From: Escherichia coli
Lineage (GTDB): Bacteria > Pseudomonadota > Gammaproteobacteria > Enterobacterales > Enterobacteriaceae
Length of the DNA: 64,000 nucleotides
Assembly: GCF_016903815.1 (NCBI RefSeq)
Contig: NZ_CP069973.1
Direction: 5' to 3' (one strand)
Shown here: piece by piece, positions 8,094 to 29,076 of the stretch
How positions within the stretch are numbered: position 1 is the stretch's first letter
Layout: each line of letters opens with the position of its first letter
The notes under the pieces: model-generated
What the model was told of the DNA's origin: nothing
What the model saw: only the letters and a program-made list of their open reading frames with translations
Databases searched by the model: none
Program-made: the position numbers and the translations under genes

Positions 8094-10244
8094 TTAGTGG
8101 TGCGAAGAGATCTTCACGCCGCCTTCCGGGATTGGAACGTACGGTGTTTCTTTGTCAGTACGTTTGTCGCTGTTACGCACCTTCAGCCAGGTTTTGAAAC
8201 CGTAGAAGATGATGCTGTACACCACAATCAGGAACAGAATACTCAGGCCTGCGTTGGTGTAGTTGTTCACAACGATGTGGTTCATGTTGGCAATCTGCTG
8301 CGCCGTCAGGTCAGTACCGTTAGCAATCTTCTCTTTGTACTGGCTCGCCATGTAGAAGAAGCCTTCCATCTGCGGGTTGGTGCTGAACAGTTTCAGGCCC
8401 AGCGCCCAGGTGGTGCAGATAAGCAGCCATACTGCCGGGATAACGGTAACCCAGATGTATTGGGTGCGCTTCATCTTAATCAGTACAACGGTGCCCAGTA
8501 CCAGCGCCACGGCTGCCAGCATCTGGTTGGAGATACCGAACAGCGGCCACAGGCTCTTAACGCCGCCCAGCGGATCGACCACGCCCTGATACAGCAGGTA
8601 GCCCCACAGACCCACACAGCCCGCAGTACCGATGATACCGGCAACCAGAGAGTCGGTTTTTTTCAGGAACGGGATGAAGTTACCCAGCAGGTCTTGCAGC
8701 ATAAAGCGGCCAGAACGGGTACCCGCATCCAGCGCGGTCAGGATGAACAGGGCTTCGAACAGAATACCGAAGTGATACCAGAAGCCCATGTCAGCCATCG
8801 GCAGCACTTTGTGGAACACGTGAGCGATACCTACCGCCAGCGTTGGCGCACCACCTGCACGGTTCAGGACAGAAGGCTCACCAATGTCTTTCGCGGTTTG
8901 CAGGATCTGCTCTGGCGAAATCACGAAGCCCCAGGAGCTGACGGTCGCTGCCGCGTGTGCGGTAACGTCTTTCAGCTGTGCCATGATGATCGGCGCGTTC
9001 TCGCCACCCATTTCATGCAGGTTAGGCATGGTGATGCCGAGGCCAGCAGGCGGGGTGTTCATCGCGAAGTAAAGACCCGGTTCGATGATGGACGCAGCAA
9101 CCAGCGCCATAATCGCCACGAAGGACTCCATCAGCATTGCGCCGTAGCCGATGAAACGCGCGTCGGTTTCATTAGCCAGCAGTTTCGGCGTCGTACCGGA
9201 AGAGATCAGCGCGTGGAAGCCAGATACCGCACCACAGGCGATGGTGATGAACAGGAACGGGAACAGAGCGCCTTTCCACAGCGGGCCAGTACCGTCAATG
9301 TACTGGGTCATGGCAGGCATTTTCAGTTCCGGGTTCAGCACCACGATACCCAGCGCCAGGCCGACGATAACGCCGATTTTCAGGAAGGTTGCCAGATAGT
9401 CGCGCGGTGCGAGGATCAGCCACACTGGCAGCAGTGCGGAAACAAACGCATAGCCAATCAGCGCGAAAGTAATGGTGGTATCTTTAAAGGTCAGTGCCGG
9501 ACCCCAGTACGGATCGTGAGCAATCACGCCACCGAAGTAGATAGAGGCAACCAGCAGCACGATACCAATGACAGAGACTTCACCCACACGCCCCGGACGA
9601 ATAAAGCGCATGTAGATACCCATAAACAGCGCAATCGGTACGGTTGAGCAAACGGTGAAGACCCCCCACGGACTTTCGGCCAGGGCTTTAACCACAATCA
9701 GTGCCAGAACGGCGAGGATGATGATCATGATTAAGAAACAGCCAAACAGCGCGATAGTCCCCGGTACTGGTCCCATCTCTTCTTTGATCATCTCACCAAG
9801 AGATGCGCCGTTACGGCGAGAGGAGATAAACAGCACCATAAAGTCCTGAACCGCACCGGCCAGCACGACCCCCGCCAGCAGCCACAGCGTGCCAGGCAGG
9901 TAGCCCATCTGCGCGGCGAGAACCGGACCCACCAGCGGACCAGCACCGGCGATAGCGGCGAAGTGGTGACCAAACAACACGTAACGGTTGGTCGGAACGT
10001 AGTTCAGACCGTCGTTGTTAATAACCGCAGGCGTCGCGCGCGTGGGGTCGAGTTTCATCACCTTCTGGGCGATGTACAGACTGTAGTAGCGATACGCCAC
10101 CAGATACACCGACACAGAGGCGACCACGATCCACAGGGCGCTGACGTGCTCCCCCCGACGTAATGCAACTACCGCGAGGCAGAATGCACCGATGATTCCG
10201 AGAATCACCCAGGGTATGTGCTTGAATATCTTTTTAGTATCCAT
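8094..10244 (-). CDS. btsT: CstA-family pyruvate/H+ symporter BtsT (YjiY), about 716 aa
   Basis: ORF track 721 aa; start set to the internal Met (MDTKKIFKHIPWVILG) to match the recalled length; multi-pass membrane protein. Confidence 0.85.
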   Translation of the reverse strand: MDTKKIFKHIPWVILGIIGAFCLAVVALRRGEHVSALWIVVASVSVYLVAYRYYSLYIAQKVMKLDPTRATPAVINNDGLNYVPTNRYVLFGHHFAAIAGAGPLVGPVLAAQMGYLPGTLWLLAGVVLAGAVQDFMVLFISSRRNGASLGEMIKEEMGPVPGTIALFGCFLIMIIILAVLALIVVKALAESPWGVFTVCSTVPIALFMGIYMRFIRPGRVGEVSVIGIVLLVASIYFGGVIAHDPYWGPALTFKDTTITFALIGYAFVSALLPVWLILAPRDYLATFLKIGVIVGLALGIVVLNPELKMPAMTQYIDGTGPLWKGALFPFLFITIACGAVSGFHALISSGTTPKLLANETDARFIGYGAMLMESFVAIMALVAASIIEPGLYFAMNTPPAGLGITMPNLHEMGGENAPIIMAQLKDVTAHAAATVSSWGFVISPEQILQTAKDIGEPSVLNRAGGAPTLAVGIAHVFHKVLPMADMGFWYHFGILFEALFILTALDAGTRSGRFMLQDLLGNFIPFLKKTDSLVAGIIGTAGCVGLWGYLLYQGVVDPLGGVKSLWPLFGISNQMLAAVALVLGTVVLIKMKRTQYIWVTVIPAVWLLICTTWALGLKLFSTNPQMEGFFYMASQYKEKIANGTDLTAQQIANMNHIVVNNYTNAGLSILFLIVVYSIIFYGFKTWLKVRNSDKRTDKETPYVPIPEGGVKISSHH

Positions 10245-10453
10245 AGTAAAACCTGGCATGTATTGATTAATAGTTGGCCGAAGCCGTTCTAGGTTTGCGT
10301 TGCGTTTGAGGAGGTAAATTGACCGCTATCCTGCAGTGATGTTGCCAGAGTTACGCGCGCGTAAAGTAAGGTAAATAACTGAGTGGTTATTTTAGGGACG
10401 TAAGCGGTCAGGAATGGCGGTGAGCGGCAAAGGCGTCGTTTAAGTGACCATAA

Positions 10454-10620: not shown

Positions 10621-12285
10621 ATGTTAAAACGTATCAAAATTGTGACCAGCCTACTGCTGGTTTTGGCCGTTTTTGGCCTTTTACAACTGACTTCAGGCGG
10701 TCTGTTCTTTAATGCCTTAAAGAACGACAAAGAAAATTTCACTGTTTTACAAACCATTCGCCAGCAGCAATCCACGCTGAATGGCAGCTGGGTCGCTTTG
10801 TTGCAGACGCGTAACACCCTCAACCGCGCGGGTATCCGCTACATGATGGATCAGAACAATATTGGTAGCGGTTCAACCGTTGCTGAGCTGATGCAGAGTG
10901 CCAGTATTTCGCTGAAACAGGCGGAAAAAAACTGGGCGGATTACGAAGCGTTGCCGCGTGACCCGCGTCAGAGCACCGCCGCAGCGGCAGAGATCAAACG
11001 TAATTACGATATTTATCACAATGCGCTGGCGGAGCTGATACAACTGTTAGGTGCAGGCAAAATCAACGAGTTCTTTGATCAGCCGACCCAGGGATATCAG
11101 GACGGTTTCGAGAAGCAGTATGTGGCTTACATGGAGCAAAACGATCGGCTCTATGATATCGCCGTCAGCGATAACAATGCCTCCTACAGCCAGGCGATGT
11201 GGATTCTGGTAGGCGTGATGATCGTCGTACTGGCGGTCATCCTCGCCGTCTGGTTCGGTATTAAAGCCTCGCTGGTAGCGCCAATGAATCGCCTGATTGA
11301 CAGCATTCGTCATATTGCAGGCGGCGATCTAGTGAAACCGATTGAGGTGGATGGCTCTAATGAGATGGGGCAACTGGCAGAGAGTTTGCGCCATATGCAG
11401 GGAGAGCTGATGCGTACCGTCGGTGATGTGCGCAACGGGGCCAATGCCATCTATAGCGGTGCCAGCGAAATCGCCACCGGCAATAACGATCTCTCTTCGC
11501 GCACCGAGCAACAGGCCGCTTCGCTGGAAGAGACGGCAGCCAGCATGGAGCAACTGACCGCAACGGTGAAACAGAATGCCGAAAATGCGCGCCAGGCCAG
11601 CCATCTGGCGTTAAGTGCTTCCGAAACGGCGCAACGCGGCGGCAAAGTGGTGGATAACGTGGTGCAGACCATGCGCGATATCTCCACCAGTTCGCAGAAA
11701 ATCGCCGATATTATCAGCGTAATTGACGGCATTGCCTTCCAGACCAATATTCTGGCTTTGAACGCGGCGGTTGAGGCTGCGCGTGCGGGTGAGCAAGGAC
11801 GCGGTTTTGCGGTGGTCGCGGGAGAAGTGCGTAATCTGGCCCAGCGTAGCGCTCAGGCTGCTCGTGAAATTAAAAGCCTGATTGAAGACTCGGTGGGGAA
11901 AGTGGATGTTGGCTCTACGCTGGTCGAAAGCGCCGGGGAAACAATGGCGGAGATTGTCAGTGCCGTGACCCGCGTGACGGACATTATGGGCGAAATTGCT
12001 TCTGCTTCTGATGAGCAGAGCCGTGGTATCGATCAGGTTGGCTTAGCGGTTGCTGAGATGGACCGGGTAACTCAACAGAACGCCGCGCTGGTGGAAGAAT
12101 CTGCCGCCGCCGCCGCCGCGCTGGAAGAACAGGCCAGTCGCCTGACCGAAGCAGTGGCAGTGTTCCTGATTCAGCAACAGCAGCAACAGCAGCGTGAAGC
12201 ATCGGCTGTGGTAAAAACCGTGACGCCAGCTACGCCGCGCAAAATGGCCGTGGCAGATAGCGAGGAGAACTGGGAAACGTTTTAA
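10621..12285 (+). CDS. tsr: Methyl-accepting chemotaxis protein I, serine chemoreceptor Tsr (554 aa, poly-Gln tract longer than I recall for K-12)
   Basis: ORF track 554 aa; HAMP and methyl-accepting signalling domains; C-terminal NWETF pentapeptide. Confidence 0.92.
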
Positions 12286-12294
12286 CGTAATGAT

Positions 12295-12324
12295 GCCGGA
12301 TGAGTATTTCATCCGGCGTTTTTA
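12295..12324. terminator. Bidirectional rho-independent terminator between convergent tsr and the TRAP permease gene
   Basis: gccggatgagtatttcatccggc hairpin followed by a T-run (A-run on the other strand). Confidence 0.6.
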
Positions 12325-12327
12325 TTA

Positions 12328-13599
12328 TTAAACCAGGAACAGTGAAATCGCCGGGATATATGTCACCAGCATTAGCATTAACAGTAGAGCCGCCAGTAGG
12401 GGCAGGGATTGTTTAAAGAAATTTCCCACCGAAACTTGCGTGATATTACATACCAGCAGCATCACGGTACCTACCGGTGGCGTGAATGCGCCAATCGACA
12501 GGTTGAAGATCATGATGATGCCAAAATGCACCGGATCGATGCCAAAGTGTTCGACCACCGGTTTTAATAGTGGTACCAGGATCAGCAAAATGGCGTTTCC
12601 TTCCAGAAACATCCCCAGCGTCAGCAGCAATATGTTGATAATCAACAGGAACATGTATTTGTTTTCGGTCAGCGAAGTCACAAAATTCGCCACTGCGACA
12701 CCAGCATGTTCCATTGAGAAAATCCATCCCAATGCGGCGCTGGCCATGATTACCAGCATCACCGATGCGGTTGCGCGTGCCGTTTCGCCCAATGCTTTGA
12801 CGACATGAGAAATCCGCATTTCACGATAGATAAAAAAGCCAATCGCCAGCACGATTAGCACCGCTACTGCACCTGCTTCTGTTGGGGTGAAAATGTTAGC
12901 GCGAATACCACCCACCACAGCAAAAATGAGGAACAGCGCAGGCCAGGCCTGTCCCAGCGAGAACACCATCTCTTTGCCCGTAGGCCAGCTTTCACGCGAG
13001 GGTTTAGCGTTAGTTTTGCGGGCGACAAGGTAGACGGTAAACATCAGTACGACTGCGCATAGCAAACCAGGTACCAGTCCGGCGATAAACATTTTTCCGA
13101 TAGAGACATCGGCAACCAGACCGTAAATAATCAGGGCTATTCCAGGCGGTATGATCGGGGTGACTAACGAGCCACCAGCGGTAATGGCGGCGGCAAACGC
13201 GCGATTGTAGCCTTTACGTTCCATCTCCGGCACCATCATGCGCGACAGCATCGCCGCGTCAGCAAGGTTAGAGGCGCTGACGCCGCCCATCATGGTGCTG
13301 ACGAGAATGTTTGCCACGCCCAGTCCGCCGCGCATTTTCCCCACCAGAACGTTGGCAATGTGCAGGATGCGTTCGGCAATGCCGGTGTAGCTCATTAGTG
13401 TGCCGAGCAAGATAAAAAACGGAATTGCCAGCAATGATGGGCTTTGCGTTGGCGCGATTAGTCTTTGCACGGCAATTTCAATCGGTACGCTGGAGAAGAA
13501 TAAAAAGTAAGCGATGATGCCAATAAACATCGCCAGATAGACCCGAATGTTGAGAAACAAACAGACGATCATTAGCGGAATAATCAATAACCAACTCAT
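12328..13599 (-). CDS. TRAP transporter large permease subunit (DctM family), 423 aa
   Basis: ORF track 423 aa polytopic membrane protein with DctM-like sequence; 4-bp ATGA overlap with the upstream DctQ-like gene. Confidence 0.8.
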   Translation of the reverse strand: MSWLLIIPLMIVCLFLNIRVYLAMFIGIIAYFLFFSSVPIEIAVQRLIAPTQSPSLLAIPFFILLGTLMSYTGIAERILHIANVLVGKMRGGLGVANILVSTMMGGVSASNLADAAMLSRMMVPEMERKGYNRAFAAAITAGGSLVTPIIPPGIALIIYGLVADVSIGKMFIAGLVPGLLCAVVLMFTVYLVARKTNAKPSRESWPTGKEMVFSLGQAWPALFLIFAVVGGIRANIFTPTEAGAVAVLIVLAIGFFIYREMRISHVVKALGETARATASVMLVIMASAALGWIFSMEHAGVAVANFVTSLTENKYMFLLIINILLLTLGMFLEGNAILLILVPLLKPVVEHFGIDPVHFGIIMIFNLSIGAFTPPVGTVMLLVCNITQVSVGNFFKQSLPLLAALLLMLMLVTYIPAISLFLV

Positions 13600-14069
13600 T
13601 GCATTTTGTCTCCGCTATCGGATTGTTTTGTATCGTTTATTAACCAGTAGAGGGTATAAATAGCCGTTGCCAGTGCGCCGACAGGGACCGCCAGATCGAT
13701 CCAGAACCAGGAAACTTTCAGAATTTGTGTCACTTTAAACTGCGCCATTTCGGCTAGTCGGTAGCCCAGCCAGGCCATATAAAGCAGCAGTGCGATGGAG
13801 AGAAGGGCGACCAGTACTGCAATAACACGCCTGAGTTTGCCTGGAAGCATCTCCATCAGGAAGGGAATGGTCAGGTGCGCCCTGTCACGTTCCGCCACCA
13901 CTCCACCTAACATCACCACCCAAATCATCAGCATTCCCGACATTTCTTCTGTCCATTGAAGCGGTTGGCCGATGAAATAACGCATAAATACCGCTCCAAT
14001 TGTCACCACAACCAGAACGAATAGCGCAAAGGCAGCACTAAATTCTGCCACTTTGCCAAAAAGACGCAT
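13596..14069 (-). CDS. TRAP transporter small permease subunit (DctQ family), 157 aa
   Basis: ORF track 157 aa, four predicted TM segments, lies between DctP-like and DctM-like genes. Confidence 0.75.
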   Translation of the reverse strand: MRLFGKVAEFSAAFALFVLVVVTIGAVFMRYFIGQPLQWTEEMSGMLMIWVVMLGGVVAERDRAHLTIPFLMEMLPGKLRRVIAVLVALLSIALLLYMAWLGYRLAEMAQFKVTQILKVSWFWIDLAVPVGALATAIYTLYWLINDTKQSDSGDKMQ

Positions 14070-28743: not shown

Positions 28744-28830
28744 TAAAGATAATTGGTGCGAGGGGGGGGACTTGAACCCCCACGTCCGTAAGGACACTAA
28801 CACCTGAAGCTAGCGCGTCTACCAATTCCG
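28744..28830 (-). tRNA. leuV: tRNA-Leu (anticodon CAG), 87 nt
   Basis: Reverse complement reads GCGAAGGTGGCGGAATTGGTAGACGCGCTAGCTTCAGGTGTTAGTGTCCTTACGGACGTGGGGGTTCAAGTCCCCCCCCTCGCACCA, anticodon loop CTTCAGGTG, long variable arm, encoded CCA. Confidence 0.92.
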
Positions 28831-28874
28831 CCACCTTCGCACAGTCATCTTACTTTTTTTGATATCGCCTCGTT

Positions 28875-28961
28875 TGGTGCGAGGGGGGGGACTTGAACCC
28901 CCACGTCCGTAAGAACACTAACACCTGAAGCTAGCGCGTCTACCAATTCCGCCACCTTCGC
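28875..28961 (-). tRNA. leuP: tRNA-Leu (anticodon CAG), 87 nt, with one base difference in the variable arm
   Basis: Same sequence as the flanking copies except GTGTTC instead of GTGTCC in the variable-arm stem. Confidence 0.9.
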
Positions 28962-28989
28962 CCAGTGCGAGCAATATCAACGTGGTTTT

Positions 28990-29076
28990 TGGTGCGAGGG
29001 GGGGGACTTGAACCCCCACGTCCGTAAGGACACTAACACCTGAAGCTAGCGCGTCTACCAATTCCGCCACCTTCGC
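28990..29076 (-). tRNA. leuQ: tRNA-Leu (anticodon CAG), 87 nt
   Basis: Identical to the first copy; the three genes are separated by about 28-44 bp spacers. Confidence 0.92.

Follow-up and report, generated by a model that had tools for sequence, protein, structure and literature searches.

Does the run of seven glutamines at the base of the Tsr tether in this E. coli genome represent a lengthening of the receptor, how did it arise, and does its length bear on chemotactic adaptation? The window (the whole stretch of DNA analysed, 64,000 nucleotides) carries the modal allele of an ordinary in-frame repeat polymorphism. Our account as a whole, to which we assign a probability of roughly 0.85, is that a two-copy allele of a 9-bp repeat sits at the junction of helix and tether, that the K-12 form would be a derived loss, and that the length differences are probably near-neutral. 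Tsr and its tether are textbook material, and the 7-Gln allele is already known from RefSeq and, with Arg516, from PDB 3ZX6. The direct significance of the locus is small, the window holding the commonest form of a well-studied receptor. No paper on a tsr VNTR or a Gln-repeat length polymorphism was found in the literature searched; the matches for a tsr repeat were false, 'TSR' standing there for a sequencing reagent or for the Salmonella TSR1–3 regions.

The tsr gene and its glutamine tract

The tract lies in the 3′ part of tsr, with the following features in and just past the gene.

10621..12285, + strand: tsr, serine chemoreceptor (MCP-I), 554 codons plus stop (open reading frame, identity, NF011615, Pfam)
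12166..12168, + strand: CTG codon, Leu516; Arg (CGG/CGT) in almost all other E. coli and in most orthologs
12169..12267, + strand: C-terminal tether, Ile517 plus a 32-residue non-conserved linker, Q518–E549 (ortholog alignment, AlphaFold, literature)
12172..12180, + strand: repeat unit copy 1, CAGCAACAG, Gln518–520
12181..12189, + strand: repeat unit copy 2, CAGCAACAG, Gln521–523; missing from K-12-type alleles (alignment, codon display)
12190..12192, + strand: trailing CAG, Gln524, partial start of a further unit, common to all alleles
12268..12282, + strand: codons of the NWETF pentapeptide, the CheR/CheB docking site (sequence, translation)
12292..12320, + strand: terminator-like hairpin followed by a T run, just past the tsr stop (consensus scan, a pattern match only)

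The gene is a tsr ortholog by a full-length match to NF011615, the equivalog model for Tsr in NCBIfam (1220.8 bits, cut-off 947, positions 1–554 of 554 covered), by its domain order (TarH PF02203 at 1–176, HAMP PF00672 at 217–263 and MCPsignal PF00015 at 327–484 in Pfam) and by its chromosomal position beside btsT, the upstream neighbour, to which the open reading frame at 8094–10259 on the − strand corresponds. The model for Tar gives the same protein 750.9 bits, under its own cut-off of 900. Over 1,665 bases the gene is 100% identical to its counterpart in E. coli strain 7/2, which was isolated from human faeces, and a protein identical to the window Tsr is already present in RefSeq as WP_000919580.1. 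The hairpin past the stop has a 13-pair stem with 6 GC pairs.

Read directly, 12172–12192 on the + strand is (CAGCAACAG)x2+CAG, that is, seven Gln codons of which the second and the fifth are CAA and the others CAG; they are codons 518–524 of tsr, in frame with the 554-amino-acid open reading frame. Tandem Repeats Finder reports 12172–12193 as a period-9 array of 2.4 copies with 100% matches and the unit CAGCAACAG, so that two perfect unit copies stand head to tail. No other perfect period-9 array reaching 21 nt is present in the 64-kb window, for which 200 shuffles put the expected number at 0.01. The tract also encodes the longest homopolymeric amino-acid run, and the sole 7-residue run, in any frame, apart from its own image on the reverse strand; the reverse-strand open reading frames over the tract (poly-Leu and poly-Cys images) are without support as genes.

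The tract adjoins Ile517, the last conserved residue, and the NWETF pentapeptide follows 25 residues further on, at the extreme C-terminus, where this xZxxZ motif is invariant in 28 orthologs. Two claims of the preliminary description of this DNA, that the seven glutamines are made of two copies of a 9-bp unit and that they lie between the signalling domain and NWETF, thus hold, the first by sequence, frame and Tandem Repeats Finder, the second with the refinement that the tract is the very base of the tether. Its figure of four glutamines for K-12 Tsr was also right: the K-12-like locus encodes a 551-amino-acid Tsr and reads ATT-CAGCAACAG-CAG-CGT at the tract site, K-12 DHB4 matches the 4-Gln query, PDB 6S1K (551 amino acids) has RIQQQQRE, and the K-12 tether is printed with four glutamines in Table 1 of PMC10561060.

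The window and K-12 Tsr (PDB 6S1K, tether IQQQQRETS...NWETF) share gene, domains, pentapeptide and an upstream btsT, and in tsr other E. coli strains match the window at ~97–100% identity. The two proteins differ by one extra 9-bp unit (7 against 4 Gln, 554 against 551 amino acids), by Leu instead of Arg at 516 and by the linker substitutions T523A (K-12 numbering) and A538T. A closer structural counterpart is the tail of PDB 3ZX6, an Af1503 HAMP–Tsr chimera, which has seven glutamines as in the window and aligns with it residue for residue and gap-free, but carries Arg516, Thr after Arg-Glu and Gly for Glu before the pentapeptide (GENWETF), in a chimeric construct. Because of its seven-Gln tail, the 7-Gln allele has already been used in structural work; given that tail and GENWETF, the tsr source of the construct was not a K-12-type allele. 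Published Tsr structures (3ZX6 and 6S1K) therefore mix two natural alleles.

Leu516 is a separate rarity of this strain. Of the genomes searched, no more than 151 carry the exact 63-base haplotype that combines it with seven Gln and Arg-Glu-Ala; the nearest relative, UTI89, has Arg at position 516. A Leu directly before the Gln run might, speculatively, favour helix formation.

Allele lengths and their recurrence

We searched 5,426 complete E. coli genomes, of which 5,342 carry the region, with three synthetic megablast queries that share common consensus flanks and carry 2, 1 or 4 repeat units. A 9-bp gap costs a match enough identity to place it one band further down, which tells the alleles apart, and the allele counts from the three flank queries reconcile exactly. 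The counts below refer to RefSeq complete genomes, a biased sample with many laboratory and clinical clones, and do not amount to a survey of the population.

4 Gln, 1 unit, 29-residue linker: 1,211 of 5,342 genomes (22.7%)
7 Gln, 2 units, 32-residue linker: 4,056 of 5,342 genomes (75.9%)
10 Gln, 3 units, 35-residue linker: 72 of 5,342 genomes (1.3%)
13 Gln, 4 units, 38-residue linker: 3 of 5,342 genomes (0.06%)

The tract is thus polymorphic across E. coli, and a species uniformly fixed at seven glutamines, the outcome that the preliminary description had named as fatal to its claim, is not what the tabulation gives. The 13-Gln strains are RM14723, A13 and Z1323HEC0355. Spans differ by multiples of 9 in all ~270 matches listed, and the sequences fetched for every allele class are exact multiples of the unit; alleles off by 3 or 6 bases (6 or 8 Gln) could hide in the identity bands, and none is among the matches listed. 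The four-unit query ranked no 16-Gln allele above the 10-Gln alleles in the E. coli genomes, and an exact-pattern scan of metagenome contigs returned no tract of at least five units (16 Gln or more). The longest tract in the 5,342 genomes, at 13 Gln, is well short of the polyglutamine lengths of pathogenic type (>~35 Gln).

Have these lengths arisen once each or repeatedly? With the repeat columns taken out of the alignment, a gene tree of tsr from 20 strains shows the alleles interspersed: different alleles sit on near-identical tsr haplotypes, and one allele sits on different haplotypes. The window (7 Gln) and UTI89 (4 Gln) are separated by 2 SNPs in 1,656 bases. MP1 (10 Gln) is 3 SNPs away from the 13-Gln strains RM14723 and Z1323HEC0355 and 10 away from A13. 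Within the last 400 bases, H10407 (7 Gln) and an O104:H21 strain (10 Gln) have 0 SNPs between them, and K-12 (4 Gln) and HS (10 Gln) have 2. The nearest neighbour of ET450 and D72, both with 4 Gln, is an ST131 strain with 7. Parsimony on bootstrapped tsr trees gives 8–11 copy-number changes among the 20 strains, a number that intragenic recombination in tsr could inflate as a count of independent slippage events. Since the alleles are scattered and the window stands only 2 SNPs from UTI89, slippage has probably recurred, and the suggestion of repeat slippage in the preliminary description is upheld: the changes come in whole 9-bp units and repeatedly, as replication slippage predicts.

In the mechanism that we envisage, slipped-strand mispairing between perfect units during replication would create the copy-number variation, and the CAA interruption would confine slippage to the 9-bp register, other registers producing mismatches. 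The tract resembles bacterial in-frame VNTRs generated by slipped-strand mispairing in its perfect units, its whole-unit copy-number polymorphism and its homoplasy on the gene tree. It differs from them in having only 1–4 copies and in never breaking the reading frame.

The surroundings of tsr vary among strains as well. Downstream, a TRAP transporter operon is found in the window, UTI89, CFT073, LF82 and O145, and lgoT–lgoR in K-12, O157:H7, H10407, ST131 and HS. Upstream, btsT lies directly beside tsr in the window and K-12, and hpaR of the hpa cluster takes this place in ET450, E89, D72, O145 and HS. The repeat allele tracks neither the upstream nor the downstream gene arrangement (window 12328–14069; loci L001, L002 and L082–L099).

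Polarity of the K-12 length

The preliminary description had presented the seven-Gln run as an expansion, and here the comparison goes against it: 7 Gln is the modal length (75.9%), and its codon count equals that of every outgroup Tsr examined. The outgroups comprise the Enterobacteriaceae loci among the matches listed and protein-database fragments with DNA, from another Escherichia species, Salmonella, Citrobacter, Enterobacter, Leclercia and Kluyvera; the genome matches listed included no record named E. albertii, E. fergusonii or Salmonella. All of these outgroups have 8 codons from Ile517 to the following Glu or Asp, as does the 7-Gln allele, whereas K-12 has five. Escherichia-like tracts read QQEQQRQR (L100), QQEQKRQR (L101) and QQAQQRQH (L033, 94% amino-acid identity), Salmonella tracts QQEQQRAR and QQQQQRAR, and those of Leclercia, Enterobacter and Citrobacter QQ[DE]QQK.. 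or QHDQQR...

Linker lengths point the same way. Between Ile517 and NWETF the window has 32 residues, as do 9 of the 14 orthologs at ≥82% identity, and across 24 orthologs linkers span 31–42 residues, 32 being the modal length, with no conserved columns. The NCBIfam Tsr profile, at 554 positions, also has the length of the 7-Gln protein. The 29-residue linker of K-12 is the shortest, set against 27 other Tsr sequences. As 7 Gln is modal and the outgroup codon count matches it, the K-12 4-Gln allele reads as a derived minority contraction; on these sequence comparisons, we infer that the 7-Gln length is ancestral and that the K-12 form has lost one unit. The parsimony root state is left out of this argument, since the root is biased once the outgroup is coded as two units.

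Where E. coli stands apart is in how perfect the repeat is. Outgroup DNA reads CAG CAA GAG CAA CAG CGT CAG, and ~5 substitutions would be needed to turn it into two identical units. With so many changes required, the E. coli ancestor may have undergone a deletion followed by re-duplication, or a homogenisation of units. The length is equal to that of the outgroups, which falls short of strict proof that the 7-Gln allele never came from a shorter state, and such a detour may have occurred.

One record among these comparisons deserves a remark of its own. L033 (NZ_JAATUR010000013.1, labelled E. coli SCPM-O-B-8794) differs in tsr from all E. coli tsr by ~178 of 1,656 bases (~11%). It is the representative of a separate GTDB species, and the record is probably a mislabelled non-coli Escherichia.

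Tether structure and adaptation

In K-12 Tsr, residue 517 is the last conserved residue and is followed by a 34-residue non-conserved C-terminus (PMC4692393), R516 being the tethering site and I517 the first tether residue in the treatment of PMC10561060. The pentapeptide at the far end, in K-12 Tsr and Tar, binds CheR and phospho-CheB as their docking site and boosts methylation and demethylation (PMC7390727, PMC8609364). Direct EPR evidence for linker disorder is cited for Tar only. Among PDB constructs or models, 1QU7 stops at residue 520 and 8C5V (cryo-EM-derived) at 516.

The Gln run might extend the C-terminal helix instead of forming flexible chain, so that added units would shift the anchor by ~0.15 nm per residue and not by the ~0.36 nm per residue of contour, which we consider unlikely. 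Poly-Gln is prone to form helix beside coiled coils or after a Leu, and the window has Leu516 before the tract. An AlphaFold monomer (28 orthologs, mean pLDDT 72) ends the long helix at 513 and, after a break at 514–518, places a short helix at 519–528 over the tract. However, this helix is of low confidence, with a mean pLDDT of 69 over residues 511–520 and 49 over 521–530. Confidence is lost from about residue 520, with pLDDT below 50 from 528 and falling from 69 to 33 across the tether, and the model is a monomer of what is a dimeric four-helix bundle. The published treatments end the ordered or conserved part at 516/517 (PMC10561060, PMC4692393), and the 8C5V chain stops at residue 516.

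With the tract as the base of a disordered tether, the reading that we prefer, each unit would add ~1.1 nm of contour. The measured counterpart is an engineered Tar series with tethers of 22, 29, 34 and 46 residues, in which the peak of tethered CheR shifts by 0.128 ± 0.048 nm per residue (PMC10561060); earlier Tar linker truncations are those of Li & Hazelbauer 2006, as cited in that paper. In Tar, as would hold for the Tsr alleles, a disordered linker from receptor body to NWETF sets the CheR distribution by its length. The Tar variants were made in the laboratory by deleting or inserting residues close to the pentapeptide, as opposed to the Tsr alleles, which are natural and vary at the helix-proximal end. 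Entering Tsr site distances in equation 7 of PMC10561060 with Tar-derived parameters, we compute that each added unit would move x0, the position of peak CheR density, by about +0.38 nm; the density of CheR at sites 1–3 of Tsr would fall to ~0.74-fold, a drop of ~25%. On this extrapolation, the distribution of tethered CheR would shift only slightly per unit.

Could slippage nonetheless serve as an adaptive tuning knob, akin to a contingency locus, varying tether length, CheR/CheB reach and adaptation kinetics, with alleles favoured by niche? The preliminary description leaned this way, and the idea is possible but unsupported; we regard it as quite improbable. Unit-wise changes do recur on several haplotypes, engineered Tar tethers measurably shift the positional distribution of CheR (PMC10561060), and a change of about a quarter in CheR density per unit is what the extrapolation yields. 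Yet a contingency locus or phase-variable gene is made less likely by the low copy number and by the share of 76% that one allele holds: 1–4 copies are far below typical hypermutable contingency repeats, and the long alleles are rare, at 1.4% together. No host or pathotype association is visible among the carriers in the matches listed, where 10 Gln occurs in the commensals HS and MP1, the AIEC strain LF82, a probiotic strain and dog and mouse isolates. Ortholog linkers of 31–42 residues without sequence conservation suggest tolerance, and mixed receptor arrays buffer tether effects (PMC10561060, Discussion). The alleles are therefore probably near-neutral or of small effect on adaptation, because ortholog linkers vary freely, one allele dominates and rare-allele carriers have no obvious shared habitat.

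A broader version of the same idea, that E. coli maintains a natural series of Tsr tethers, 29, 32, 35 or 38 residues long, by which the reach of CheR/CheB and the speed of adaptation are set, with K-12 as the short outlier, likewise earns little credence from us. If true, adaptation models parametrised on K-12 Tsr would miss most wild E. coli, and the published argument that the Tsr tether is shorter than that of Tar to fit methylation-site geometry would also be affected.

Short repeats can in principle be miscalled, but no sign was found that the length difference from K-12 comes from an error of sequencing or assembly in low-complexity DNA, and this explanation can be dismissed for the 7-Gln allele: 4,056 independently assembled complete genomes have the very same length, the alleles are all set apart by whole 9-bp units with the frame kept, and the seven-Gln tail recurs in the PDB construct 3ZX6.

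If, as we hold, the window carries the common near-neutral length and K-12 the contracted one, two published uses of Tsr are touched. Work on chemotaxis should bear in mind that the K-12 Tsr reference stands for only ~23% of the E. coli sequenced. The Tsr tether of 30 amino acids, shorter than the 34 of Tar, has been explained by a shorter mean distance to the methylation sites (PMC10561060). By the counting of that paper, however, the tether has 33 residues in three quarters of E. coli genomes, against 34 in Tar, and with the modal Tsr tether so close to that of Tar the rationale is weakened and holds only for the K-12 allele. The natural 4, 7, 10 and 13 Gln series is in turn a ready-made set of minimally invasive variants for the tethered-particle model of adaptation.

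Two further repeats were noted in the window. Within tsr, a (GCC)n run at 12103–12120 (Tandem Repeats Finder period 3, 5.7 copies) encodes six Ala between the methylation sites E493 and E502. The metagenome-derived Tsr fragments P0001, P0002 and P0007 have only 5 or 4 Ala in this run. Such shortening would shift the helix register and could reflect slippage, pseudogenes or assembly errors. Outside the gene, three tandem tRNA-Leu(CAG) genes at 28754–29076 on the − strand form a repeat of 121-bp period (Tandem Repeats Finder score 501), as expected of a leuV–leuP–leuQ type cluster.
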